A stretch of DNA of 64,000 nucleotides, taken from the NCBI GenBank assembly GCA_015063785.1, contig SVTM01000007.1:25665-89664 (forward strand). Reading direction: 5' to 3'. Under the pieces are notes generated by a model that saw only the letters and a list, made by a program, of their open reading frames with translations, ran no database searches and was not told the DNA's origin. Origin of the DNA: Oscillospiraceae bacterium (GTDB lineage Bacteria > Bacillota > Clostridia > Oscillospirales > CAG-382). Shown one piece after another: positions 1,811 to 59,095 of this stretch (position 1 is the stretch's first letter; every line of letters begins with the position of its first letter). Made by a program: the position numbers and the translations under genes.

Positions 1811-1940
1811 AAGATACCTCGCAGATTTTTCTTATACACAAAGTATTTCCCAAAAAAGAAAGAAAATGCGCAGGGCAGAAAATAAAAAAAGGTTGCAGGA
1901 ACGAACCTGCAACCGCTATCTGTCGACAAAATATTTTTCT

Positions 1941-2125
1941 TGAAATAATTAAGAGAGAACCCCCGGCGAGGGTTCTCCCTCTTTTCAACCGCGAAACGGT
2001 TGAAAATTCACCCTCTCCTGCGCTTTTTGAAGGCAAAGGATATTTCGCTCTCTGCGGAGAGCGATTTAAGGCTCCGCCTTAAAAATCCGAAAACTTTTTT
2101 GTAAAAAAGTTTTATCAAAAAACTT
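1941..2125. repeat. Mosaic hairpin repeat, locus A (module II type)
   Basis: A chain of hairpins: GAGAACCC-ccggcga-GGGTTCTC, CAACCG-cgaaa-CGGTTG, TCGCTCTC-tgcg-GAGAGCGA, AAGGC-tcc-GCCTT, AAAACTTTTTT-gt-AAAAAAGTTTT. It is colinear with 54395-54585 and with the reverse of 37691-37905. Confidence 0.75.
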
Positions 2126-5703: not shown

Positions 5704-5755
5704 CATTGTAGGGCAGGGGCCCAATCCTGCCGAATGGTGGGGGATTTTATCAATG
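5704..5755 (+). repeat. Mosaic repeat module IV copy (52 bp, first of a perfect direct pair)
   Basis: cattgtagggcaggggcccaatcctgccgaatggtgggggattttatcaatg is identical to 6040-6091. It contains the hairpin GGCAGG-ggcccaat-CCTGCC and the terminal ATCAATG motif. Confidence 0.9.
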
Positions 5756-6039
5756 TGAAAAACACAATGCGAGAGGGGATATCGCACCCCTCTCACACTC
5801 ACCCTCTCGTCATTTCTTTTTCAAAAAGAAATGACAGTAGAAAATAATTATCGAAATCGGTTTGTCGATATCAGCCCCGTTTCCGATATCTGGGTACGGC
5901 AAAGGTTGAGGTTTTTACTGCAAGGGCATATCGGCATCAAAAGGCGGAGTCATCACGGTTGATTGGTGTGCCATTTTGCCGATATCAGAAAATATACGTC
6001 GGTCATATCGGCGGATATGTTTGGCATCGGTTTCCATCC

Positions 6040-6091
6040 CATTGTAGGGCAGGGGCCCAATCCTGCCGAATGGTGGGGGATTTTATCAATG
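6040..6091 (+). repeat. Mosaic repeat module IV copy (52 bp, second of a perfect direct pair)
   Basis: Identical to 5704-5755 by direct reading. Confidence 0.9.
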
Positions 6092-6287
6092 GCAAAAACG
6101 GGCAAAAAACCGCGCAAAAATACAGGGGGTTGCAATTTTAGATAATATATGTTATAATAACTACATCTGCGTTCAGAAAAGTTCGTTAAAAAACTGTCGC
6201 AAAAGGCGAAAAAAACGCAGAAAACCACTAAAAAAGACCTATATTTTCTCTAAAAAAACACAGTTTCGGAAAGGAGATTCGGAAAAA

Positions 6288-6875
6288 ATGAAAAAGCATT
6301 TTGATTCATCAAAGAAAAAAACAACCGCACTTATCGTGGCGGCAGTGCTTTGTGTTATTGCTCTTGTTTTTCCCTGTTTTGTCCTTGCAACAGACTATGT
6401 ACCCGAAAACGATCCGCTGGTCACTCTCAGCTATATGAAGGACGTTTTCGGCCCGTCCCTTAAACAGGAGATCAAAGACGAGATCAGGGCAGAGGCTGCG
6501 GCTGAAGCCGAAAAAGAAATTGAAAAAGAAACAGAAACAACACCTGAACAGGGAGAAGCTGAAACTGCCCCCGACACCGACGATACAGCTCCCGTAAACG
6601 TGGGATACGCGGTTGTCGAGCTTTGCGCAGGTCAGAAGCTTTCATCCAAAAACGGCACAGTCGAGCTTATCGTACGTCCCGGCTCGTCTGCTGTTGCTTT
6701 TTCGGAAATTCCCGAAAACGGACTTTCGGACATTTCCGAAATGAGAGAAGTACTTAACGGTGAAGAAGTTGGCATAAACCACGCCATCATCATTCCCCGA
6801 AACGACGGAAGGGGTATTGTGATCACCTCGGACAAGGCATACGTTCTTGTACGCGGAGATTACATCGTTGAATGA
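6288..6875 (+). CDS. Membrane-anchored hypothetical protein, overlaps the spoIID start by 4 nt
   Basis: 195 aa; N-terminal Lys-rich segment plus TM helix (ALIVAAVLCVIALVFPCFVLA), acidic linker, AAAGGAG RBS. The ATGA overlap with the next gene suggests translational coupling. Confidence 0.5.
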   Translation: MKKHFDSSKKKTTALIVAAVLCVIALVFPCFVLATDYVPENDPLVTLSYMKDVFGPSLKQEIKDEIRAEAAAEAEKEIEKETETTPEQGEAETAPDTDDTAPVNVGYAVVELCAGQKLSSKNGTVELIVRPGSSAVAFSEIPENGLSDISEMREVLNGEEVGINHAIIIPRNDGRGIVITSDKAYVLVRGDYIVE

Positions 6876-18669: not shown

Positions 18670-19794
18670 ATGGCAAAGGCAAAGAACACCGAAAACCAGT
18701 CGGGCGAAAAGAAAAACGAGATACTTCGCCTGATAGAAAAAGGCAAGGCAAAGGGACATCTGACCACCGAAGAGGTGCTGGAGGTCATCGACGAAACAGA
18801 TCTTGACGTTGAACAGATAGAAAAATTATACGAAACCTTCGAAGAGCAGGGCATTGAGGTCATCGGCTACGAGGAGGATATGAACCTGGACGAGATAAGC
18901 TCGGAAACCTTAAGCGATTATGCCGACGACGAAACCGACGACGGCGCCCTCTCGCAGGAAGGTATGCTTATCGACGACCCCGTTCGAATGTACCTTAAAG
19001 AGATCGGAAAGGTCGAGCTGCTTGACACCGAAAAAGAGCTTGCCCTTGCCGAAAAAATGGCAAACGGCGACGAACAGGCAAAGAATATATTGGTGGAAAG
19101 CAACCTGCGCCTTGTTGTCAGCATTGCAAAAAGATATGTGGGCAGAGGAATGTTTTTTCTCGACCTTATTCAGGAGGGAAACCTCGGCCTTATGAAGGCG
19201 GTGGAAAAGTTTGACTATACCAAGGGCTACAAATTCTCTACCTACGCCACCTGGTGGATCAGACAAGCCATCACCCGTGCCATCGCCGACCAGGCGCGCA
19301 CCATCCGAATCCCCGTACATATGGTGGAAACCATAAACAAGGTACTGCGCGTTTCGCGCCAGCTTCTGCAGGAGCTGGGACGCGAGGCGACCACCGAGGA
19401 GATTGCAAAGGTTATGAACATGGCCCCCGAAAAGGTGCGGGACATAATGAAGCTGGCGCAAGAGCCCGTGAGCCTCGAAACCCCCATCGGCGAGGAGGAG
19501 GACAGCCACCTTGGCGATTTTATTCCCGACGACGATGCTCCGGCACCTGCCGATGCGGCATCCTACGCGCTGCTTCGCGAGCAACTGAACGAAGTGCTCC
19601 ACACCCTCACCCCAAGAGAAGAAGAGGTGCTGAAGCTTCGCTTTGGTCTTGAGGACGGCAGAACGCGCACCCTTGAAGAGGTGGGACTGGAATTCAACAT
19701 CACCCGAGAGCGCATCCGTCAGATCGAAGCCAAGGCGCTTCGAAAGCTTCGCCATCCCAGCCGTTCCAAACGGCTTAAAGACTATCTTGACTGA
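18670..19794 (+). CDS. rpoD: Primary RNA polymerase sigma factor (RpoD/SigA)
   Basis: Start at the ATG at 18670 ([10 protein letters not shown]). Canonical group 1 motifs: [94 protein letters not shown]. Downstream of dnaG. Confidence 0.95.
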
Positions 19795-20536: not shown

Positions 20537-21694
20537 ATGGCAAAATCTGCTTCAAAGAAAAAAAGCGCATCTCCCGACAATTCCATAGTAACAAACCTTG
20601 CAGAGCTTCTTACCGAGCGTGCAAAAAACACCGGCTCTCTTTCGAGCGCCGACATTCTCGATTGCATCGAGGATTCCCACATCTCGATCGAACAGATCGA
20701 AATGCTCTATGACATTCTCGACAGCCGCGGCATCGAGATAACCGATTTCAGCGAGGAGGACGCCTTTCTTGACGATATCCTGAAGGGTGACGAAAACCCC
20801 GACAGCCACGAGAACGACGAGTTTGAAGAAGCTCTTGAGGAAGAGCTTGCCCAGGACAGCTCTGTTGTAAACGACTCGGTGCGCGTCTACCTTAAGGACA
20901 TCGGAAAGATCGAGCTTTTAAGCGCCGAACGCGAGCTGGAACTGGCCGAAAAAATGGCAAACGGCGACGAGATCGCCAAGGGCGAGATCATTGAAAGTAA
21001 CCTGCGCCTTGTCGTAAGCATTGCAAAAAAATACACCGGACGCGGCATGCCTTTTCTTGATCTTATCCAGGAGGGCAACATCGGCCTTATGAAGGCGGTG
21101 GAAAAGTTTGACTATACCAAGGGCTACAAGTTCTCGACCTACGCCACCTGGTGGATCAGACAAGCCATCACCCGTTCTATCTCGGTGCACGGCAGAACCA
21201 TCCCCCTTCCGGTACATATCGTTGAAAAAATAAACAAGCTTCGCCAGATCTCCCGTGCTGCAATGCAGCGTCTTGGCCGCGAGCCCAACGACGCCGAGAT
21301 TGCACAGGAAATGGGATGCTCGGTGGAAAAGGTGCGCGAGATCATAAAGTACGCCCAGGACCCCATCAGCCTTGAGGAGCGCGTGGGCAAGGAAGAGGAC
21401 AGCGTTATCGGCGATTTTATTCCCGATGCCAACGCCCCCGACCCCGAACAGATCGTTTCGCGCACTATCCTGCGCGAGAAAATAATGGAAGCTCTCGACA
21501 GCCTGACTCCCAGAGAGGCAAGCGTAATCAAGATGCGCTTTGGACTGATTGACGGCAGAGTCCGCACCCTTGAAGAGGTGGGCGAAGAATTTAACATCAC
21601 CCGTGAACGTATCCGTCAGATCGAAGCAAAGGCTCTGCGCAAGCTGCGCCATCCCAGCCGTATCAAGATGTTCAAGGAATTTGGCGGAGAATGA
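20537..21694 (+). CDS. Second RpoD-like sigma-70 factor (paralog of the gene at 18670)
   Basis: 385 aa with full regions 1.1-4.2. Regions 2.3-2.4 and 4.2 are nearly identical to the first copy, but the invariant [15 protein letters not shown] is changed to [15 protein letters not shown] and region 1.1 is divergent. Confidence 0.85.
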
Positions 21695-26684: not shown

Positions 26685-26711
26685 CAGGAGCCGAAAGGCT
26701 CCTGTTTTTTT
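26685..26711 (+). terminator. Rho-independent terminator of the feo operon
   Basis: CAGGAGCC-gaaa-GGCTCCTG followed by a T7 run. Confidence 0.75.
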
Positions 26712-26813
26712 GCCGTTGATCAAATTTTACACCGAACGGCAGGACGTGGCGCCTGCCCCGCGGCAAAAGAAAGGCACGGCAAAGATGCCGTGCCATACGT
26801 TTTTCTTTTGTTC

Positions 26814-34202: not shown

Positions 34203-34223
34203 GGGATCCTCTGTAATAAAAAA

Positions 34224-34260
34224 GCCGACCACTCTTTTTAAAAAGGGTGGTCGGTTTTTG
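34224..34260 (+). terminator. Rho-independent terminator of ddl
   Basis: GCCGACCAC...GTGGTCGGT hairpin followed by TTTTTG. Confidence 0.6.
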
Positions 34261-34261
34261 T

Positions 34262-34465
34262 GTGGGTCTCCATATAAATCCCGCACCCAATGATAAAGTT
34301 TCGGTCCACCCTTTTCAAAGGGTGGCGGATTCCAAATCAATGATAAAAATCCCAACCGTAGGGGCGAACTGCGTTCGCCCGTTTTTGCCATCGGTTAAAT
34401 TCCATACAAAACGGCAGGAGCAAGCCCCTGCCCTACGATAAGGGCGGGAGGCTTTTATTGAAATA
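34262..34465. repeat. Mosaic hairpin repeat, locus C (module II fragment, III, IV, I fragment)
   Basis: Contains CCACCCTTttcAAAGGGTGG, gtaGGGGCGAACtgcGTTCGCCC and GGCAGGagcaagccCCTGCC units separated by CATTGAT/ATCAATG-like junctions. Confidence 0.8.
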
Positions 34466-35390: not shown

Positions 35391-37490
35391 TCATATATTT
35401 TTTTGTTTTTTTGCGTTTATTTCGTCTGCAAGCTTTTTTGTTTCTTCGATCAACTTCATATCTGCGGCAAGGTCGGCGATCTTAAAGGCAAGCTCGCCGT
35501 GCTGGCGTTTTCCAAAGAAATCGCCGGGACCGCGCATTTCAAGATCGTATTCCGAGATCTTGAATCCGCTTTCGTTTTCGCACATAATATTAAATCGCTT
35601 TTCGGCAGGATTTGCGCCGTCGGCAAGCTTTCCGCGGATGATGGGCGACATAAGCACGCAATAGGATTTGTGCACCCCTCTGCCCACTCGACCGCGCAGC
35701 TGATGCAGCTGGGAAAGTCCGAAGCGTTCGGCGTTTTCGATCACCATAAGGGCAGCGTTGGGCACGTTGACACCCACCTCGATAACGGTGGTCGAAACGA
35801 GAATGTCGGTTTTGCCGTCTGAAAAGGCACGCATGATCTTGTCCTTTTCGGCAGGCTTCATTTTGCCGTGGACAAAATCTATGCGAAGCTTTGGGAAAAT
35901 CTCGCTTTTCAGCTTTTCGCAATACTCGGCGGCAGATTTAAGCCCCGATTCATACATCTCTTCCGAAAGTTCTTCGTTCATGTTTTGTGCCAAAGGGCAG
36001 ACGATATAGCATTGACGCCCCTCGCAAACCAGCTTTTCGATGAATTTATATATTCTTTCGCGCATACTTTCGCCCACGGCAAAGGTATCCACCTTTTGAC
36101 GTCCCGGGGGCAGCTCGTCGATGATGCTGATGTCAAGATCGCCGTAAAGAATAAGGGCAAGGGTACGCGGTATTGGGGTTGCCGACATAACGAGCATATG
36201 GGGCACGACATTTTTTCCGTCGTCGGAAATTGCCGTTTTGCCCGACAGCTTGTCGCGCTGTTTCACACCAAAGCGGTGCTGCTCGTCGGTTATGGCAAGG
36301 CCCGGGGTTTTGAATACCACGCTGTCCTCAATAAGGGCGTGGGTGCCGATGATCAGGTCGATCTTTCCGTCGGCAAGGGCGGAAAGGATCTTTTTCTTTT
36401 CAGAAGCTTTTGTGCTTCCCGTCAAAAGTGCCGTGGCAATGCGGTGCTTTTCCATAAGCGGCAAAAGCGAGGCATAATGCTGCTCGGCAAGGATTTCTGT
36501 CGGCACCATAAGGGATGCCTGAGCTCGGTTTTTGACACAGGCGTATATCGCCGCGGCGGCAACAATGGTTTTGCCGCTGCCCACGTCGCCCTGTACCAGA
36601 CGGCGCATGGGTTGAGTGTATTCGCGCAATATCTGCGGCTCGGTTTGCACGTCGCTTCGCGTCATGTCATAGATAATGTTTTCGACGGCGTTTTTTTGTG
36701 CCCCTGTGAGGGTATAGTCAAGGCTGTCGAAAAAGGGAGTCATGTCGGGACGGAAAAATTTGAAAGACCTGCCGTTTTTGTTGCGGTTTTTAAGAGCTCG
36801 CAGGCGCAGCTGGAAGAGCAAAAGCTCTTCAAAGGCAAGCCTTTTTCGAGCTTCCTTCATTTTTGCGTCGTCGGTGGGAAAATGAATGGCGCAAAGAGCG
36901 TCGTAAAGTCCCATGAGGTCGTATTTTTTTATGATGTCTGTCGGCAGACTTTCCACGTTTTTGTATGCTTCAAGAGCCTGCTTTACCAGCATCGAAAGCA
37001 TCTTGCAGGTGATGCCCTTGGTCAGGGGATATATGGGCACAAGGTTGTCAAGGGTGGCGTTTGTGTAATATGGCTCGTATGCAGGCGAGAGCATCTGGGG
37101 AGAAAGAAAACTGCCCCCCACCATGCCGTAAAATCTGAATTTTCTGCCTGTAACAAGGGTGGTTTTCAAAAAATCGCGGTTGAAAAAGGTGATGTGGACG
37201 CTTCCCGTTTCGTCGTGGGCTGTCACCTTTTGCACCGTCATGGCACGCCCCTTTTTTGACGAGATGCGCGTGCTTGACAGGGGAGAGGATATTTCGAGTA
37301 TGCAGGAGGCCACCTCGCCCGGCGAAAGCTCGCAGACCTTTTTGGTCATGCCGCGGTTTTCGTAGCCGCGCGGATAATGCCGCACAAGATCGTCGACAGT
37401 GCAGATCTCGAGGTTTGCAAGAAGTTTTGCCCTTGCTTCGCTGACACCGTAGAGTTTTGTTACCGAATCGTTTGGGGTAAATGACGGCAT
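35391..37490 (-). CDS. recG: ATP-dependent DNA helicase RecG
   Basis: Start at the ATG at 37490 (AAAGGAGG RBS). Wedge domain followed by helicase motifs GDVGSGKT, DEQHRFGV, MSATPIPRT, QLHQLRGRVGRG. Confidence 0.95.
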   Translation of the reverse strand: MPSFTPNDSVTKLYGVSEARAKLLANLEICTVDDLVRHYPRGYENRGMTKKVCELSPGEVASCILEISSPLSSTRISSKKGRAMTVQKVTAHDETGSVHITFFNRDFLKTTLVTGRKFRFYGMVGGSFLSPQMLSPAYEPYYTNATLDNLVPIYPLTKGITCKMLSMLVKQALEAYKNVESLPTDIIKKYDLMGLYDALCAIHFPTDDAKMKEARKRLAFEELLLFQLRLRALKNRNKNGRSFKFFRPDMTPFFDSLDYTLTGAQKNAVENIIYDMTRSDVQTEPQILREYTQPMRRLVQGDVGSGKTIVAAAAIYACVKNRAQASLMVPTEILAEQHYASLLPLMEKHRIATALLTGSTKASEKKKILSALADGKIDLIIGTHALIEDSVVFKTPGLAITDEQHRFGVKQRDKLSGKTAISDDGKNVVPHMLVMSATPIPRTLALILYGDLDISIIDELPPGRQKVDTFAVGESMRERIYKFIEKLVCEGRQCYIVCPLAQNMNEELSEEMYESGLKSAAEYCEKLKSEIFPKLRIDFVHGKMKPAEKDKIMRAFSDGKTDILVSTTVIEVGVNVPNAALMVIENAERFGLSQLHQLRGRVGRGVHKSYCVLMSPIIRGKLADGANPAEKRFNIMCENESGFKISEYDLEMRGPGDFFGKRQHGELAFKIADLAADMKLIEETKKLADEINAKKQKNI

Positions 37491-37518
37491 TTTTTTGCCT
37501 CCTTTCGCGGTTGTGTTG

Positions 37519-38100
37519 GTTTTTGCCATTTGTTAAATTCCAAAATCCCTCCACCGTCTTCGACGGTCCCCCTCCCTTTAGGCAAGGGAGGCGTTTGTTG
37601 GGGTGCAAATTTTTAACCATTGATAAAAAACCCAATCGTAGGGTGAGGTGTGTTCGCCCGTTTTTGTCATCGGTTAAATCCCACAACAAATAATAAAGTT
37701 TCGGTCCACCCTTTTCAAAGGGTGGCGGATTCCAAAGGCGGCGCCTTTGGTCGCTCTCCGCAGAGAGCGAAACACTCTTTTTCCTTCCCAATGCGCAGGG
37801 AAGTTGCAAGCAACTTCTGAAGTTTGTTGCACAAACTTCGACGGGTGAATTGCACGAAGTGCAAGAGGGAAACCCTCGCCGGGGGTTTCCCTTTTTCAAG
37901 CATTGATTAAATCCCACACCAAACGGCAGGAGCAAGCCCCTGCCCTACGATAGGGCGGGAGGCGTTTGTTGGGGTGCAAATTTTTAACCATTGATAAAAA
38001 ACCCAATCGTAGGGGCGAACTGTGTTCGCCCGTTTTTGCCAATGATTAAATTACACACCAAACGGCAGGAGAGAACCTATGCCCTATGATTAAGGTAGGA
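37519..38100. repeat. Mosaic hairpin repeat, locus D (largest array, about 580 bp, at least 7 modules)
   Basis: By direct reading the module order is I, III, II (with two extra hairpins), IV, I fragment, III, IV, all reverse-oriented relative to locus E. There is an internal direct repeat of about 55 bp (37590-37645 vs 37962-38015). Confidence 0.85.
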
Positions 38101-38168
38101 TTTGGGATAAAGGTAAAAATTTTATTTGCAGTGACCGATGTCCTCGGTGGTCTGTGGCGCGCACTGTC

Positions 38169-52489: not shown

Positions 52490-52689
52490 GCGATTTTTCG
52501 AATATTCGTTCGTTTTGTAACTTTGCACAAAGCCCAAGCCTGCACGCAGGCAAATAAAAAATCAAATTTGTATATTTTACCACTTGACTTTTGCGAACAT
52601 TTGTGCTATATCTTCCTTTCATATTTTCGCCGCCGAAAAAATAAAATATATAGCCTGCGGCAATTTTTTATTTGAAAGGAACAGACAAA

Positions 52690-54204
52690 ATGAAAAACGA
52701 AAGCTCGCGCACGATCTCGTCGATCAAAAACCTGCGCGCAAGCACGGCAGGGATATTCATAAACGTGATATTCAGCTTTTTCTCGCGAAAGATCTTTGTT
52801 CTTGTGCTGGGCAAAGAATACGTGGGGGTATCGAGCCTTATCGGCAACATCACGGCGCTTATATCTCTTGTGGATTTTGGTGCCGCCACCGCCGTGACCT
52901 ATCGGCTTTATCGCGCCCTTGCCACGGGTGATGACAAATCTGTTTGCGGATATCTGCATTTTTATCGCCGCATCTGCGCCCTTTCGTCTGTCCTCACCTG
53001 TGTTGCAGGGGCGGCTTTGAGCGTGATACTGCCAAAGCTTGTGCGCGGATTTGACGATGCCGTCACCCTTTATGTGGTTTTTGCCGCAAGCATTCTGACC
53101 AGTGCCGCCGAATATTTTTTTATGCCCGAAAGGGTGCTTCTGTTTGCCGATCAAAAAAGCTATGTTGCCCAGCTTTTTTCGTATGCGTTCGGGGCGGTCA
53201 CGGTGGTTGCAGACGCCGTGGTGCTTGTGGTTTTCAAAAGCTTTTCGGCACATCTTCTTGTCCATTCGGCGCTGAGCATACTGCAGGATATCTTTGTGGT
53301 GCGCCACGTCAGGCGGCAATATGCAAAGCTGGGCATCTCGTCAAAAAAGAGGTATGACAAGGCTTTTTTTAAGGATCTTGTACGCGAAATGGTGTCTCTT
53401 GCACCGTCGAATATTGCCGGCACACTTTCGCGCACCGTCGACAATTTTATTGTGGTGTCGCTTTTCGGTGTGTCGCAAAACGGGGTATATTCAAACTACA
53501 ATATGCTGCTTTCGTATGCGGCAATTTTTTCGGTGACGGTGGTGGGGGCGATCTCGGCAAGCGTGGGAAACCTTAACGCCAGCGCATCACGGGCGCGGTC
53601 GATGCGCATTTTCGGCATGACAAGTCTTGCTTCGTTTTTTCTTGTAAATATCAGCACAACTTTGCTTTTTGTCATGTCGGGAGATATAATGACGGCGTGG
53701 CTGGGCAGCACGATGGCGCTTCCTTTTTCGTGCTCGTGCGCTCTTGCCGCAAATTTCTTTATATCCGGCGTGCGCCGTGTTCCCGTGGTTTTCCGCGACA
53801 GTCTGGGGCTTTACAGGCACGAAAAAATAAAATCCTTCGTCGACCTTTTTGCTTCTGTGGCTCTGTCGGTATTTTTTGGCAAAAAGTTTGGAATTGCAGG
53901 CATATATCTCGGTCAGGCGGTGGCGGCGTTTGTGGTATGCCTGTGGTACGAGCCGTACGTGCTTTTCAAATACGGCTTTGGCACGGGGGTGTGGCGGTAT
54001 TATATGCGCTTGCTTTCATATGCCGCCGTGTCGGCGGCGTCGTGCCTGTGCTCGCTTTCGCTGTGTCATGCGGTGGGAAGCTTTTCGGTAAAATTTTTGG
54101 TGTGTATTGCCGTTTCGGCGGTATTCTTTTTTGCCTGCTTTGCAGGGTGCCGCGATCTTTCGGGCATTTTCGAAAAGTTCTCGGCAATGCGCGCAAAATC
54201 GTAG
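52690..54204 (+). CDS. MOP-superfamily polysaccharide/oligosaccharide flippase (Wzx-like)
   Basis: 504 aa from the ATG at 52690, roughly 12-14 hydrophobic helices, N-terminus typical of Polysacc_synt proteins. Its TAG stop lies inside the first repeat module (cgTAGggcag). Confidence 0.6.
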   Translation: MKNESSRTISSIKNLRASTAGIFINVIFSFFSRKIFVLVLGKEYVGVSSLIGNITALISLVDFGAATAVTYRLYRALATGDDKSVCGYLHFYRRICALSSVLTCVAGAALSVILPKLVRGFDDAVTLYVVFAASILTSAAEYFFMPERVLLFADQKSYVAQLFSYAFGAVTVVADAVVLVVFKSFSAHLLVHSALSILQDIFVVRHVRRQYAKLGISSKKRYDKAFFKDLVREMVSLAPSNIAGTLSRTVDNFIVVSLFGVSQNGVYSNYNMLLSYAAIFSVTVVGAISASVGNLNASASRARSMRIFGMTSLASFFLVNISTTLLFVMSGDIMTAWLGSTMALPFSCSCALAANFFISGVRRVPVVFRDSLGLYRHEKIKSFVDLFASVALSVFFGKKFGIAGIYLGQAVAAFVVCLWYEPYVLFKYGFGTGVWRYYMRLLSYAAVSAASCLCSLSLCHAVGSFSVKFLVCIAVSAVFFFACFAGCRDLSGIFEKFSAMRAKS

Positions 54205-54585
54205 GGCAGGGGGCCCGTCCTGCCGTTTGGTATGGAATTTTGCCTATGGCAGAACGGGCGAACGCAGTTCGCCCCTACGATTGGAATTTTTATCATTGAT
54301 TTGAAATTTGCACCCAACACAAGCCTTCTCCTATTAGGAGAAGGGGGACCGTCGAAGACGGTGGAGGGATTTTGGAATTTCATCAATGCTTGAAAAAGGG
54401 AAACCCCCGGCGAGGGTTTCCCTCTTGCACTTCGTGCAATTCACCCATCCTGCGCATTGCGAACGCAAAAAGGGGGTGTTTCGCTCTCTGCGGAGAGCGA
54501 CCAAAGGCGCCGCCTTTGGAATCCGCCACCCTTTGAAAAGGGTGGACCGAAACTTTACCCTTTGGGCGGTGTAAATGCGCCATTT
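54200..54585. repeat. Mosaic hairpin repeat, locus E (modules IV, III, I, II in forward orientation)
   Basis: Read directly: cgtaGGGCAGGgggcccgtCCTGCC; GGGCGAACgcaGTTCGCCC; tttgcacccaac...GGACCGTCgaaGACGGTGG...ggaatttcatcaatg; GGGAAACCCccggcgaGGGTTTCCC...CCACCCTTtgaaAAGGGTGG. Confidence 0.85.
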
Positions 54586-54738: not shown

Positions 54739-56172
54739 ATGGCAAGCTCACAATACATGGCAGAATTTGAAAAAATGCCGCCTGCGCAGGTTCGCGAAAA
54801 GGTGGATATCATGGCGCAGGAGATACGCAACAAGGTTATATCAGCCAAAAACTACATCCCCCACGGCGAGCGTGTGATATATCTTTCAAACGCAGGCTGC
54901 GACGAAAACGACGGACTTTCGGTTGAAAAACCCATCCGCACCATCGAAAAGCTGAATTCCATAACGCAGGACGGCGACACCGTGCTTTTCAAGCGCGGCG
55001 ACATCTTCCGCGGCAGTGTAAAAGTGGTGCACGAAAACATGACTTTTTCGGCGTACGGCGAGGGCGTAAAGCCTATTATCTGCGGCTCGCTCAAAAACTA
55101 TGCCGACCCGGATCTTTGGCAGCCCACCGAGTACGAAAACGTATATCGCCTTACCGAAACGCTCGACAACGTGGGACTTATCATCTTCAACCCCGGCTAC
55201 ACCTACGGCTCGACCGACGAGATATATGCCGACAGAGCCATGCGCGGCAAAAACGGCTTTATGGAGCTTTGCGATCTTCGCGATGACCTTGTTTTTTACA
55301 ACGACTACGAAACAGGCGAGCTTTATCTCTGCTCGCACGGGGGCAACCCTGCAGAGCGTTTTTATGACATCGAGATCGGCGCAAAAGGATGTGTTTCTGC
55401 CGTGTTTGACGGCGGAGCTCCCGGTGCCACCTTCGACAATCTCTGGGTGCTTTTTGCAGGTTGCCACGGCATAAGCTCGGGCACGGCAATAAACAGAACC
55501 GTAAAAAACTGCATCTTCGGTTGGATCGGCGGTGCGGCATTTGGCGGCGAAAAGCGCGGCGACGGCAGCTGGAATACCACACGCTACGGCAACGCCGTTC
55601 AGATATACGGCGGATGCATCGGTTTTCACGTCGAAAACAACTGGATGTATCAGATTTTTGACACAGCCATCACCCATCAGTACGGCGGATATTCCGAGGG
55701 CGACTGTATTCAGGAGGACGTTATCTACCGCGGAAATCTCACCGAGGGCTGCTTCTGGCACATCGAATTTTACAACGGCGGCCGCGAGGGCACAAAACGC
55801 TATGTCAAGGATGTATATATGACCGGCAACATCTGCCGCTACGGCGGATGGGGATGTACCGGAAGATGCGGCGGAGCCCCCATGTTCTGCGGCGCGGGAA
55901 TGTGCGAGGATGTGGAAAACTTCGTTGCAGAAAGAAATATCTTCTGCCACTCGCCGGGCGTTCTTGTCCAGTTCATTGACGAGGGCAACCGCAAGATTGT
56001 TATGCGCAACAACGTATATATCGACCCGATGGGCGCGCGTCTTGGCAGAATGTACGGCAACATCTATCCTTTTGACGATACGGCAAAGGACACACTTAAA
56101 AACCTTGTGCACGAGCAAGAGCCCACCGTCGTATTTATGCAAAAACCCAACATGAATTATCTGAAATACTGA
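54739..56172 (+). CDS. Right-handed parallel beta-helix protein, paralog 1 of 3 (477 aa)
   Basis: No signal peptide. Shared motifs with paralogs 2 and 3: GDTVLFKRGD.FRG, NNWMYQI.DTAITHQY, NCIF.W.GG, and a Cys-rich C-terminal part. Confidence 0.6.
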   Translation: MASSQYMAEFEKMPPAQVREKVDIMAQEIRNKVISAKNYIPHGERVIYLSNAGCDENDGLSVEKPIRTIEKLNSITQDGDTVLFKRGDIFRGSVKVVHENMTFSAYGEGVKPIICGSLKNYADPDLWQPTEYENVYRLTETLDNVGLIIFNPGYTYGSTDEIYADRAMRGKNGFMELCDLRDDLVFYNDYETGELYLCSHGGNPAERFYDIEIGAKGCVSAVFDGGAPGATFDNLWVLFAGCHGISSGTAINRTVKNCIFGWIGGAAFGGEKRGDGSWNTTRYGNAVQIYGGCIGFHVENNWMYQIFDTAITHQYGGYSEGDCIQEDVIYRGNLTEGCFWHIEFYNGGREGTKRYVKDVYMTGNICRYGGWGCTGRCGGAPMFCGAGMCEDVENFVAERNIFCHSPGVLVQFIDEGNRKIVMRNNVYIDPMGARLGRMYGNIYPFDDTAKDTLKNLVHEQEPTVVFMQKPNMNYLKY

Positions 56173-56197
56173 AAACATACATCAGGAGGAAACAAAA

Positions 56198-57622
56198 ATG
56201 GCAACAAAGAAGTTTATGGCGGAGCTTGAAAAAATGACTCCTGCCGAAGTAAAAAGAGCACTCGACCTCAAGGCGCAGGAAATGAAGGATTCGGTTATCT
56301 TCACTCCCAACTACCAGCCCAAGAGCGAAAGAGTTATTTACGTTTCAAATTCGGGTTGCGACTGCAACGACGGTCTTTCGGTTGAAAAGCCGATTGCTAC
56401 CCTTAAAAAGGTTTATGAGATCACACAGCCCGGCGACACAGTGCTTTTTAAGCGCGGCGACCATTTCAGAGGAACCATCACAGTCGATAAGGACGGCGTG
56501 ACCTACGCTTCCTACGGCGAAGGTATCAAGCCCATCATCGACTCGTCAAAGAAAAACTATGCCGGCGCAGATATGTGGGAGCCCACCGACGTTGAAAACG
56601 TTTATGTTCTCAAGGAAGAGATCGACAACCCCGGTCTTTTGCACTTTGACCCAAGCTATACCTATGGCGTATACAACGAGCTTTACGGCCACATGAAGCT
56701 GCGCGGTGCAGGCGGATTTATGAATTATGATCAGCTTTCGTCCGACCTCGAATTTTTTGGCGACAGAGAAACCAACAAGCTCTATCTTTACTCGGACAAG
56801 GGCAACCCCGGCGAAAGATTTCTTGACATCGAGATCGGCGCAGGCGGAAGCACCTTTGGCGGTTCTGCCCACAACGTAACCTTTGACGGACTTTGGATCA
56901 TGCACACAGGCTGCCACGGCATCGGCTCGGGCACCACAGTCAACCGCACCGTCAGAAACTGCATTTTCTCGTGGCTGGGCGGCTCGATGCTGGGCGGCGC
57001 AAAGCGCGGCGACGGAAGCTACAACACCACACGCTTTGGCAACGCTGTTGAGATCTACGGCGGATGCGAGGGCTACACCGTTGAAAATAACTGGATGTAT
57101 CAGATCTACGACACCGCCATCACCCATCAGTACGGACACTATTCCGAGGGCGACTGTATCCAGCACGACGTGCTTTATCGCAACAACCTTATGGAATATT
57201 GCTTCTGGTCGATCGAATTTTATGACGGCGAGCGCGAAGGCACCACCCGTGAGGTCAAGAACGTCTACATGACAGGCAACTTTGCCTACATGGGCGGCTA
57301 TGGCTGGGGATGCAAGGGCAGAGAAGCCTGGGCACCCCTCTGGTGCGGATCGCACGTTTGCAACAACCTTTCAAACTTTGTCACCGAAAACAACATTTTC
57401 GCCATCTGCACAGGATATCTTGTCCGTCTCGAGGACAACCCCGGCGCAAGAAATATCGTCTGCCGCAACAACGTTTACGTTCAGGAAAAGGGCAAAAAGC
57501 TCGGCCATCTTTACGGCAAGGAATATATCTATGACGACAACGCCAAGGAAAGCTTCAAGCAGCTTCTGCACGACGAGGAATCCACCGTTGTTTATATGCC
57601 TGCGCCCGAAATCAGATTTTGA
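56198..57622 (+). CDS. Right-handed parallel beta-helix protein, paralog 2 of 3 (474 aa)
   Basis: Colinear with paralogs 1 and 3 over the full length. AGGAGGAAA RBS. Confidence 0.6.
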   Translation: MATKKFMAELEKMTPAEVKRALDLKAQEMKDSVIFTPNYQPKSERVIYVSNSGCDCNDGLSVEKPIATLKKVYEITQPGDTVLFKRGDHFRGTITVDKDGVTYASYGEGIKPIIDSSKKNYAGADMWEPTDVENVYVLKEEIDNPGLLHFDPSYTYGVYNELYGHMKLRGAGGFMNYDQLSSDLEFFGDRETNKLYLYSDKGNPGERFLDIEIGAGGSTFGGSAHNVTFDGLWIMHTGCHGIGSGTTVNRTVRNCIFSWLGGSMLGGAKRGDGSYNTTRFGNAVEIYGGCEGYTVENNWMYQIYDTAITHQYGHYSEGDCIQHDVLYRNNLMEYCFWSIEFYDGEREGTTREVKNVYMTGNFAYMGGYGWGCKGREAWAPLWCGSHVCNNLSNFVTENNIFAICTGYLVRLEDNPGARNIVCRNNVYVQEKGKKLGHLYGKEYIYDDNAKESFKQLLHDEESTVVYMPAPEIRF

Positions 57623-57685
57623 TAAGGTAATACGTGTTTAAGGGGCACCTATGTGTCCCCTTTCTCAAAAAAGGAGGAAACGAAA

Positions 57686-59095
57686 ATGGCAATAAAGCAT
57701 TATCTTAAAGAGCTTGAAAGCATGACGCCTGCTAAGGCAAAGGAATTTTTGGATATCAAAGCTCAGGAAATGAAAAATTCGGTTATCTCGGCTCCCGATT
57801 ATCAGCCGAAAAACGAAAGAGTTATATATGTTTCAAACAAGGGCTGCGACTGCAACGACGGCCTTACCCCGGAAACCGCCATCGCCACCCTTGAAAAGGT
57901 AAACGAGATTACACAGCCGGGCGATACCGTGCTTTTCGAGCGCGGCAGCCATTTCAGAGGCAGCATCAAGGTGGACAAGGACGGCGTGACATATGCCGCA
58001 TACGGCAAGGGTGTAAAGCCTATTATCAACACTTCGCCCAAAAACTATTCCGATCCTGCCCTTTGGGAAAAGACAGAGGTGGAAAACGTATGGCACCTGA
58101 CCGAAAAGATCAACAATGTCGGTCTTATCCATTTTGACCCCAGCTATACCTATGGTCAGTACAACGAGCTTTACGGCACCATGCAGGTAAAGGGAAGAAA
58201 CGGATTTGAAGGATATGCCGATCTTAAAAAAGATCTTGATTATTATTCAGATTTCCACACCGACGACCTTTATCTTTACAGCGAAAAGAACCCGGGTGAG
58301 CGTTTTCTTGACATCGAGCTTTGCCCGAGAGTAAACACCTTCTCCGGCTCGGCAAACGACGTTACGGTGGACGGTTTGTGGATCATGCACACAGGTGCCC
58401 ACGGCATAGGCTCGGGCACAACAAAGAACCGCACCGTCAGAAACTGCATTTTCTCGTGGTTGGGCGGATCGATCCTTACGCTCAGTTTCAGAGGAGGCGG
58501 CCCTGTGCGCTACGGCAATGCTGTCGAAATTTACGGCGGCTGCGACGGATATACCGTTGAAAACAACTGGATGTATCAGATCTATGATACCGCCGTCACC
58601 CATCAGTTCTCCGGCGGCGATTGCGAATGTCATCAGCACAACGTAAAATATCTTAACAACCTCATGGAGTTCTGCTTCTGGTTTATCGAATATTACAACG
58701 CCGATTGCCAAGGACATCCCCAGAGTGTTAAGAATATCTATATGACAGGCAACTTCTGCCGCTTTGGCGGATATGGCTGGGGATGCAAGGGCAGAGAATG
58801 GGGCACACCCATGTACTGCGGTTCGACGGTTTGCTGCGAGGTCGAAAACCACGTTGCCGAAAACAACATTTTCTATCAGTGTCTGGGATATCTCGTTGTT
58901 CTTGCCAACTGCGAAGGCCACAAGCCCGAGATCATGCGCAACAACGTTTATGTCAACCCCAAGGGCGAAAAGTTTGCCAACGTTTTCGGTCAGATACTTA
59001 ACTTTGACGGCACCGAAAAGGAAATGCTTAAAAAGTATGTGAACGAAGAAGAACCCACCGTTATCTATATGCCAAGACCCGGTTATACCTTCTGA
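57686..59095 (+). CDS. Right-handed parallel beta-helix protein, paralog 3 of 3 (469 aa)
   Basis: Start at the ATG at 57686 (AAGGAGGAAA RBS). Colinear with paralogs 1 and 2. Confidence 0.6.
   Translation: MAIKHYLKELESMTPAKAKEFLDIKAQEMKNSVISAPDYQPKNERVIYVSNKGCDCNDGLTPETAIATLEKVNEITQPGDTVLFERGSHFRGSIKVDKDGVTYAAYGKGVKPIINTSPKNYSDPALWEKTEVENVWHLTEKINNVGLIHFDPSYTYGQYNELYGTMQVKGRNGFEGYADLKKDLDYYSDFHTDDLYLYSEKNPGERFLDIELCPRVNTFSGSANDVTVDGLWIMHTGAHGIGSGTTKNRTVRNCIFSWLGGSILTLSFRGGGPVRYGNAVEIYGGCDGYTVENNWMYQIYDTAVTHQFSGGDCECHQHNVKYLNNLMEFCFWFIEYYNADCQGHPQSVKNIYMTGNFCRFGGYGWGCKGREWGTPMYCGSTVCCEVENHVAENNIFYQCLGYLVVLANCEGHKPEIMRNNVYVNPKGEKFANVFGQILNFDGTEKEMLKKYVNEEEPTVIYMPRPGYTF

Follow-up and report, generated by a model that had tools for sequence, protein, structure and literature searches.

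We describe module II, a chain of short hairpins that is present in three full copies (A, D and E) in a 64-kb window of the Oscillospiraceae contig SVTM01000007.1; the window is the whole stretch of 64,000 nucleotides that was analysed, and its G+C content is 49%. Module II is multi-copy, widely distributed, intergenic, orientation-independent, insertion-polymorphic and modularly rearranged, and its stems covary by Watson-Crick pairs only. We consider it, with a probability of roughly 0.6, to be a non-autonomous, interspersed mosaic DNA repeat similar to the repetitive extragenic palindromic (REP) sequences and bacterial interspersed mosaic elements (BIMEs), with hairpins that are constrained at the DNA level. 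The strong RNA-like covariation seen here is probably not that of an RNA.

Structure of module II and its copies in the window

Module II is 160-200 nt long and forms an unbranched chain of six local hairpins (H1, H2, H2b, H3, H4 and H5, of which H2b is weaker than the others) that are joined by conserved linkers, namely AGGG..., TTCACCC, TTTCGC..TGCG..GCGA, AAyCCGC and GACCnAAACTTT. RNAalifold on a raw MAFFT alignment recovered only H3 and part of H4, since the stems were misaligned; the structure was therefore specified by hand, and 47 copies were used to build a covariance model that spans H3-H5 and the tail (model R1). A scan of the window with this model gave the three full copies at 82-101 bits (E=1e-22 to 1e-28), and everything else remained at or below 37 bits. 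None of the shuffled sequences folded as well as copies A, D or E. An earlier note on this DNA had located the copies correctly, and all stems that it quoted for A, E and D were found in place when the sequence was read, with the extent of the element being slightly narrower than it had proposed:

1952-2125, plus strand: full copy A (sequence; RNA fold z=-5.2; R1 81.9 bits, E=4e-22, at 2040-2124)
1955-1962/1970-1977, H1 of copy A; 1982-1991/1997-2006, H2; 2007-2013, TTCACCC; approximately 2016-2040, H2b
2045-2052/2057-2064, H3 of copy A with loop TGCG; 2065-2072/2076-2083, H4; 2084-2089, linker AATCCG
2090-2100/2103-2113, H5 of copy A; 2114-2125, tail
54397-54556, plus strand: full copy E (sequence; fold z=-5.4; R1 100.8 bits at 54476-54556)
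54397-54406/54414-54423, H1 of copy E; 54425-54430/54434-54439, H2; 54440-54446, TTCACCC; 54442-54478, H2b
54481-54500, H3 of copy E; 54501-54519, H4; 54520-54525, linker; 54526-54545, H5; 54546-54556, tail (ACCGAAACTTT)
37695-37892, minus strand: full copy D (sequence; DNA fold z=-7.4; R1 100.8 bits at 37695-37775)
34295-34336, minus strand: partial module II with linker, H5 and tail only (AATCCGCCACCCTTTGAAAAGGGTGGACCGAAACTTT; R1 36.7 bits for the H5 and tail part only; 93% identity to D and E by self-BLAST)

Copies A and E are recognizable as relatives by self-BLAST (E=9e-14). H1 is GAGAACCC/GGGTTCTC in A and GGAAACCC/GGGTTTCC in E (with its loop, AGGGAAACCC-ccggcga-GGGTTTCCCT), and the two pairs that differ are changed on both sides, in agreement with the compensatory changes previously noted. 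H2 reads (TTTT)CAACCG-cgaaa-CGGTTG(AAAA) in A and TTGCAC-ttc-GTGCAA in E, with TTCACCC next in both copies, while H5 reads AAAACTTTTTT/AAAAAAGTTTT in A and CCACCCTT-tgaa-AAGGGTGG in E, with AATCCG on the 5' side of both. These two stems are wholly different between the copies, yet pairing is perfect in each. Three features had been missed by the earlier note: H3 is identical in A and E (TCGCTCTC-TGCG-GAGAGCGA), H4 differs by three compensated pairs (TTTAAGGC/GCCTTAAA in A, CCAAAGGC-gcc-GCCTTTGG in E), and in H2b, a weaker helix, part of TTCACCC pairs with GGGTG just 5' of H3. The linkers are conserved as that note had described them, but TTCACCC is not entirely single-stranded.

Copy D is identical to E in H1, H2 and H3-H5. 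It carries in addition the two extra hairpins that had been described before, as a 41-nt twin-hairpin insert (37839-37800) between H2 and H2b that consists of GAAGTTTG..CAAACTTC, one base, and GAAGTTGC..GCAACTTC. The same 41-nt mini-module was found inside the H4 loop of two copies from other sources (L048, 3170-3210, and L103, 7116-7156), a second internal position, and it behaves as an independent insertable unit. At the partial copy (34295-34336), a TTTGG microhomology marks the point of fusion with another repeat unit. Copy E contains an open frame of 62 codons starting in ATCAATG, and the insert in D shifts the frame across H3; a coding function was rejected, as the frame is not conserved and the length differences between copies are not multiples of 3.

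Stem turnover with conserved pairing

Pair statistics were obtained for the 24 pairs of H3-H5 in 139 distinct copies, using 500 shuffles and a control in which the pairing partner was slid by 1-3 columns. A standard pair was formed in 97.3% of the H3-H5 cells, compared to 78% after shuffling and 31-47% after sliding. Changes on both sides were seen at 23 of the 24 pairs, a result matched by none of the 500 shuffles, and 502 cells were changed on both sides where about 115 were expected. The compensatory pattern is therefore far beyond chance, and the larger alignment for which the earlier note had called bears out its claim that stems are swapped without loss of pairing or linkers.

The number of unique stems was 24 for H3, 76 for H4 and 57 for H5. 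Covariation of H3 is seen as well among copies whose detection did not depend on an exact match to its 21-mer (see below); TTTCGC..TGCG..GCGA is kept in these copies and the inner pairs vary, for example as CGCTTC/GAAGCG, CGCTCGT/ACGAGCG or CGCGATC/GATCGCG. In the 5' half, H1 is clear, with at least 8 distinct stems and zero mismatches in 14 of 16 copies. H2 has at least 10 distinct stems, again with zero mismatches in 14 of 16 copies and with one mismatch in the other two. Conservation extends to the linkers, to the loops (TGCG in H3, pyrimidine-rich in H4 and of the TTGAAA type in H5) and to the outer pairs of H3, as well as to the presence of every hairpin. The sequence of the inner stems varies freely, yet their pairing remains strictly Watson-Crick.

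Occurrence in Oscillospirales

An exact-match search of a collection with one genome per species detected the H3 21-mer TTCGCTCTCTGCGGAGAGCGA at no fewer than 119 loci, with approximately 57 Oscillospirales-type assemblies among the matches listed. The sources were Oscillospiraceae, Ruminococcus sp., Acutalibacteraceae, Candidatus Avispirillum, Candidatus Faecivivens and entries named 'Clostridia bacterium', as well as the isolate Pseudoruminococcus massiliensis, and several assemblies had 5-13 matches each. The H3-H5 model gave 144 matches in 100 sources and 41 more in a further scan. In the H3-anchored alignment the downstream part always consists of H3, a variable H4, AAyCCGC, a variable H5 and GACCnAAACTTT, whereas at least two kinds of sequence are found upstream of H3, either H1-H2-TTCACCC as in the window or GCAATTCACA...TGTGAATTGC. 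Many of the 21-mer matches are situated at or near contig ends, at a distance of a few to a few hundred bases (L013, L017, L018, L021, L023, L043, L054, L065 and L070), as would be expected of a multi-copy repeat that breaks assemblies.

A larger composite element is present in metagenome-assembled genomes of Ruminococcus/Oscillospiraceae (L007, 4408-5275; also L102, L105 and L107). Two inverted H3-H5 units with the GCAATTCACA...TGTGAATTGC type of 5' part lie about 570 bp apart and enclose a unique core of about 250 bp, and AATTCGGAAT-type tandem repeats flank the entire structure.

Among 2.9 million viral contigs there was one match (L129, 2438-2550, IMG/VR UViG_3300021399_005324, 64.5 bits), which may represent a prophage or a misbinned host fragment. 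No match to module II was found in the phage and plasmid collections, and an origin from phages or plasmids was rejected on these grounds. Searches of the literature on the H3 sequence, on REP in Ruminococcus and on BIME in Firmicutes turned up no description, and a survey of GTAG repeats makes no mention of Firmicutes (PMC3733652). The repeat family, which is absent from Rfam and undescribed in the literature searched, therefore seems to be unrecorded.

Gain, loss and rearrangement at orthologous sites

Relatives for the sites at sigG and recG were reached through homologues of the flanking genes. Four metagenome contigs of the same strain carry an identical copy A upstream of sigG, and L124 and L125 (96% SigG identity) carry a nearly identical one. 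In L126, which also has 96% SigG identity, an additional H4-H5-tail half in inverted orientation takes the place of the H1/H2 half, with one H3 being common to both halves; this head-to-head chimera (587-722) suggests recombination or template switching at H3. A relative with 89% identity and the same gene order (L127) has no element in the spacer upstream of sigG, which is 105 nt long and has its own terminator.

The second site is occupied by copy D. In the window, approximately 655 nt separate the stop codon of a rhamnosidase-like gene (38169) from a conserved ribosome-binding region, AACCGC..AAAGGAGG, that belongs to recG (true start at 37490). The same junction is only 29-32 nt long in L130 and L131 (89% and 85% RecG identity), with the gene order GAPDH / rhamnosidase / recG / AP-endonuclease being common to all three, and the H3-H5 model gave no copy in the 26 kb sampled from the L130 and L131 genomes. 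Insertion, growth of clusters at the same site and recombination at hairpins are DNA-level events. It follows from the arrangement in the window that the expression of recG must cope with about 655 nt of hairpins in this organism.

Constraint on DNA or on RNA

The earlier note had left open whether module II is a structured RNA or the substrate of a hairpin-recognising DNA enzyme. In the cells of unique stems we counted 995 Watson-Crick pairs, 19 G-U pairs (1.8%), 23 A-C pairs (2.2%) and 32 other mismatches (3.0%). G-U pairs thus do not exceed A-C pairs or other mismatches in frequency, whichever strand is considered, and the wobble signature of structured RNAs is missing. This is unlike typical structured RNAs and as expected of DNA hairpins or palindromes. 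All copies are intergenic. The flanking open reading frames (ORFs) of 157 H3-like sites showed 15 sense and 19 antisense placements in co-directional contexts (p=0.61), and 21 convergent compared to 7 divergent contexts, which places the element mostly beside the 3' ends of genes. In the window, D and E are sense; copy A lies antisense to the adjacent genes, with a stop codon on one side and a canonical terminator (1916-1880) on the other. A fixed orientation to transcription, or a promoter or terminator of the element's own, as might be anticipated for a structured RNA, was not seen. The loops do have a polarity: H4 loops are TCT, GCT, TCC, TTT or GCC and their complements were never seen, H5 loops are TGAA in 51 cases and TTCA in 2, and the H3 loop is TGCG. 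Loops and linkers that are strand-asymmetric, independent of transcription and combined with Watson-Crick pairs only fit recognition of hairpins on one DNA strand better than an RNA function.

Known RNA families were rejected. The scan of the window against Rfam 15 at gathering scores gave no matches, permissive scans of A and E gave matches at chance level only (E approximately 0.06-0.3), and no tRNA or tmRNA genes were present in the window. An outward promoter reading TTGAAA-17-TATTAT, from the H5 loop into the tail, was considered for copy D (37718-37690, on the strand of recG), where it is probably due to chance; it is not general, with TAnnnT at a distance of 16-18 nt occurring in only 14 of 56 TTGAAA-bearing copies.

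That the hairpins are selected in the transcript, as a cis-acting 3' untranslated or intercistronic element or as a multi-copy small RNA, nevertheless deserves consideration. Such an RNA might be an exonuclease barrier, or a scaffold for a protein that recognises the conserved linkers and, in H3, the UGCG loop, which is of the UNCG type. The strong covariation, the strand-specific conservation of loop and linker sequences, the location of most copies downstream of genes, the position of copy A between a stop codon and an intrinsic terminator, and the conservation across many species of an H3 with a loop of the UNCG type would all agree with this explanation, as would copy D, which is probably transcribed because the junction that it fills is a tight operon in relatives. 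However, neither the scarcity of G-U nor the equally common sense and antisense placement is in line with selection on a transcript, and the lack of a conserved promoter or terminator and of any Rfam match, the empty or rearranged orthologous sites and the partial and chimeric copies also speak against it. We regard an RNA function as unlikely. Of the two possibilities raised in the earlier note, the DNA-level one agrees with the evidence as far as the repeat is concerned, with the enzyme not found, and the RNA one is disfavoured by the wobble, orientation, Rfam and empty-site results.

Possible mechanism and alternative explanations

If module II is a DNA repeat as proposed, the hairpins of one DNA strand would be read by whatever copies the element, and the likeliest candidate would be a trans-acting enzyme of the HUH/Y1 (RAYT-like) kind that recognises single strands or hairpins. 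Self-templated repair within the palindromes could help to keep the arms identical. Where copies are co-transcribed, their stem-loops might incidentally act as 3' barriers in the mRNA, by analogy to REP elements.

Several observations weigh against this interpretation. No transposase was identified in Pfam scans of 20 ORFs of the window nor among the neighbours of the 119 loci, and a RAYT gene (Y1/HUH, PF01797), which REP/BIME systems have as a single copy flanked by the repeats, was likewise not found among the 20 window ORFs scanned and 500 neighbouring ORFs, a search that covered the 64-kb window and 8-kb loci only. Module II does not carry the GTAG tag of REPs, and an exact H3 21-mer across approximately 57 species is unusual for a selfish repeat and might reflect a conserved host function. 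There is no target-site duplication in the flanks of 14 copies, no terminal inverted repeat and no precisely definable empty-site junction, as the empty-site relatives are too diverged around sigG. Strand bias relative to replication is frequent in single-strand transposition of the IS200/IS605 type, and none was found for module II, with gene strand serving only as a proxy for replication direction. Finally, the alignment was fitted to the model and seeded through H3, a concern that is met for the most part by the slid-partner control.

Module II could instead serve as a recognition scaffold, in the form of single-stranded DNA or RNA, for a trans-acting enzyme distributed throughout Oscillospirales that reads the positions of hairpins, the loops and the linkers rather than the stem sequences. 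Under this explanation, the H3 hairpin that is invariant throughout the order (TTTCGC..cTGCGg..GCGA) would be the primary site of binding or cleavage and also, as the L126 chimera suggests, a point of recombination. This proposal is tentative and, in our opinion, about as improbable as a function in RNA. A search for linked genes concerned two further candidates. All-against-all BLAST of the 500 ORFs within 3 kb of copies revealed no recurrent neighbour gene, with only generic families recurring (ABC ATPase, Fe-ADH, P-type ATPase and GGDEF/EAL), and no case was found of a 5' half separated from H3 by a gene. A role as cis-regulator of a gene family or as cargo of a transposon was rejected accordingly.

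A further explanation does without selection on folding. The copies would be recent duplicates of a few masters, and template switching within quasi-palindromes would copy one arm onto the other. Template-switch correction of quasi-palindromes is an established mutation class, and it would account for stems that are almost perfectly Watson-Crick with no wobble class, for the rearrangements at hairpins (L126 and the junction at 34295) and for the identity of D and E in H1, H2 and H3-H5. The statement in the earlier note that simple duplicated junk would not show such a pattern was therefore too strong, since template switching within a palindrome can restore perfect arms without selection. However, this process should often invert loops, and loop polarity is almost never inverted in module II (TGAA and TTCA as given above; TCT, GCT and TCC never complemented). 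The linkers, the H3 outer pairs and the loops have been kept through 57-76 turnovers of the inner stems and across approximately 57 species, which calls for a constraint on hairpin positions and loops, and 97% pairing over such diversity is hard to maintain in the absence of purifying selection. Template switching as the sole cause appears improbable to us, more so than an RNA function.

Ordinary terminators or attenuators made similar by local duplication are the least probable origin: the location at gene 3' ends and the terminator-like scores of H1 of copy A and of the GTAG-GGGCGAAC..GTTCGCCC units followed by GTTTTTG would be in their favour, but the GC-rich hairpin with an immediate T-run of an intrinsic terminator is absent, no T-run follows H3, H4 or H5 (the tail after H5 being GACCnAAACTTT), a separate canonical terminator follows copy A, copies are found in either orientation and also within an operon junction, and the same 21-mer is found at unrelated loci in approximately 57 species.

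Repeat clusters and GTAG-tagged palindromes around module II

By self-BLAST, the window contains several short repeat units, module II among them, and these are found only in intergenic gaps (5704-5763, 6038-6106, 26707-26744, 34220-34460, 37527-38095 and 54197-54569). Among these units are GTAG-tagged palindromes of two families, GTAG-GGCAGG..CCTGCC and GTAG-GGGCGAAC-TGY-GTTCGCCC, as well as a third kind of hairpin unit, and a recurring GGnATTTnATCAATG motif closes each of the neighbouring units. The features are as follows:

37512-38168, minus strand: cluster D, about 655 nt of mosaic repeat units including copy D, which fills the rhamnosidase-like/recG junction (synteny with L130 and L131; self-BLAST)
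54197-54396, plus strand: upstream part of cluster E, with GTAG at 54201 and hairpin 54205-54224, an inverted GTAG palindrome at 54278 (minus) and a third hairpin unit
34275-34460, no strand assigned: cluster between the convergent ddl and AP-endonuclease genes, with the partial module II and GTAG palindromes at 34358 (plus) and 34436 (minus)
5704-5763, plus strand: isolated GTAG-GGCAGG..CCTGCC unit with ATTTTATCAATG punctuation (self-BLAST)
6038-6106, plus strand: second GTAG-GGCAGG..CCTGCC unit, 96.7% identical to 5704-5763
5708, 6044, 34358, 34436 (minus), 37948 (minus), 38009, 54201 and 54278 (minus): the eight GTAG-tagged sites, all within clusters
1880-1916, minus strand: intrinsic terminator (GGTTGCAGG..CCTGCAACC, then T8) belonging to the upstream gene on the minus strand, context outside the repeat

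The arrangement of BIMEs, in which REPs no more than 150 nt apart alternate in orientation and are joined by linkers, is found in three pairs of GTAG units, namely 54201(+)/54278(-), 34358(+)/34436(-) and 38009(+)/37948(-). The GTAG-tagged units fit the operational definition of REP sequences and BIME clusters (PMC6006769), and module II is an additional, non-REP member of these clusters. REP/BIME-type repeats appear not to have been reported from this clade before.

Some further observations concern the surroundings of the repeats. The first unit of cluster E has a GTAG tag that includes the stop codon TAG of the ORF at 52672..54204 (54199-54204), so that the repeat adjoins or supplies the end of the gene. 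Directly downstream of cluster E are three tandem paralogous genes without a Pfam domain and with 66-71% nucleotide identity (54739-59095). The segment between the two units with 96.7% identity (5764-6037, about 276 bp) is rich in CGATATC / ATATCGGC, is situated upstream of a gene at 6288 and may be an array of operator sites. Elsewhere in the window, two segments (18974-19764 and 20871-21661) form a paralogous pair with 74% identity.

Implications

Module II represents a widespread repeat family in abundant, poorly studied gut and rumen Clostridia that was previously unrecorded in Rfam and the literature searched. It breaks metagenome assemblies, with many matches at contig ends, and its clusters split operons, as is the case for the 655 nt between the rhamnosidase-like gene and recG. 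It is also a reason for caution in the discovery of RNA motifs: 57-76 stem replacements and 97% pairing are accompanied here by neither G-U tolerance nor a transcriptional orientation, and a comparison of G-U with A-C pairs together with an orientation test should go alongside covariation statistics. Should an enzyme be found, module II would offer a tractable system for recognition of hairpin shape rather than sequence on DNA and would extend REP/BIME-type biology to Firmicutes. If the scaffold explanation were true, this would be a new non-autonomous mobile-element system with a REP/RAYT-like logic and a different, multi-hairpin code.

Comparison with known repeat systems

Bacterial interspersed palindromic mosaic repeats are a kind of element that is already known, although none seems to have been described in this clade before. 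Miniature inverted-repeat transposable elements were rejected as a match, since the ends of module II (AGGG... and ...AAACTTT(T)) are not complementary and the flanks of the 14 copies contain no duplication. The palindrome-associated transposable elements (PATEs) derived from IS200/IS605, with their omega/reRNA scaffolds, share several features with module II: both are multi-copy and non-autonomous, their ends are asymmetric with hairpins in sub-terminal position, and they lack terminal inverted repeats and an obvious target duplication. Unlike PATEs, module II has end hairpins (H1 and H5) that are unrelated to each other, has no TnpA or TnpB gene near its copies among the neighbouring ORFs examined, is not matched by the Rfam models for IS605-orfB, HEARO and their relatives, and shows no bias relative to replication as far as gene orientation can serve as a proxy.

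In Firmicutes, the BOX elements of Streptococcus pneumoniae (boxA-boxB-boxC), RUP and SPRITE are modular, intergenic, non-coding repeats with stable stem-loops and variable combinations of modules. Module II resembles them in architecture. The modules of BOX are conserved in sequence and occur in a few streptococci only, whereas the stems of module II are free. The Neisseria intergenic mosaic elements (NIMEs) are arrays of different short units split by a recurring short motif, the dRS3 punctuation. The clusters with module II are alike to NIMEs and Correia elements in being punctuated by GGnATTTnATCAATG and in forming arrays that grow at the same intergenic site. They differ from NIMEs in that the punctuation is not an inverted-repeat, dRS3-type site, and module II differs from Correia elements by its lack of terminal inverted repeats.

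Our interpretation invites a comparison with the REP/BIME sequences (REPINs) of Proteobacteria and their RAYT (TnpA_REP) transposases. Module II is not a canonical REP, as the tag GTAG/GTGG located 0-2 nt on the 5' side of REP hairpins (PMC6006769; Di Nocera 2013) is absent: H1 is preceded by A or AGGG and H3 by GnnTTT. It also differs in being a fixed chain of six different hairpins instead of one or two copies of one palindrome, in having an H3 core common to approximately 57 species where REP families are usually lineage-specific, and in being hosted by a Firmicute. The fully paired stems of 7-20 nt and loops of 2-5 nt that define REPs do have counterparts in module II, with H3-H5 stems of 8 bp and loops of 3-4 nt. 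Both kinds of repeat are extragenic, multi-copy, non-autonomous and located mostly at gene 3' ends. REP/BIME sequences consist of palindromic units that are recognised as hairpins and assembled into mosaic clusters with linker motifs, and the clusters of the window, in which module II takes part, hold true inverted GTAG pairs.

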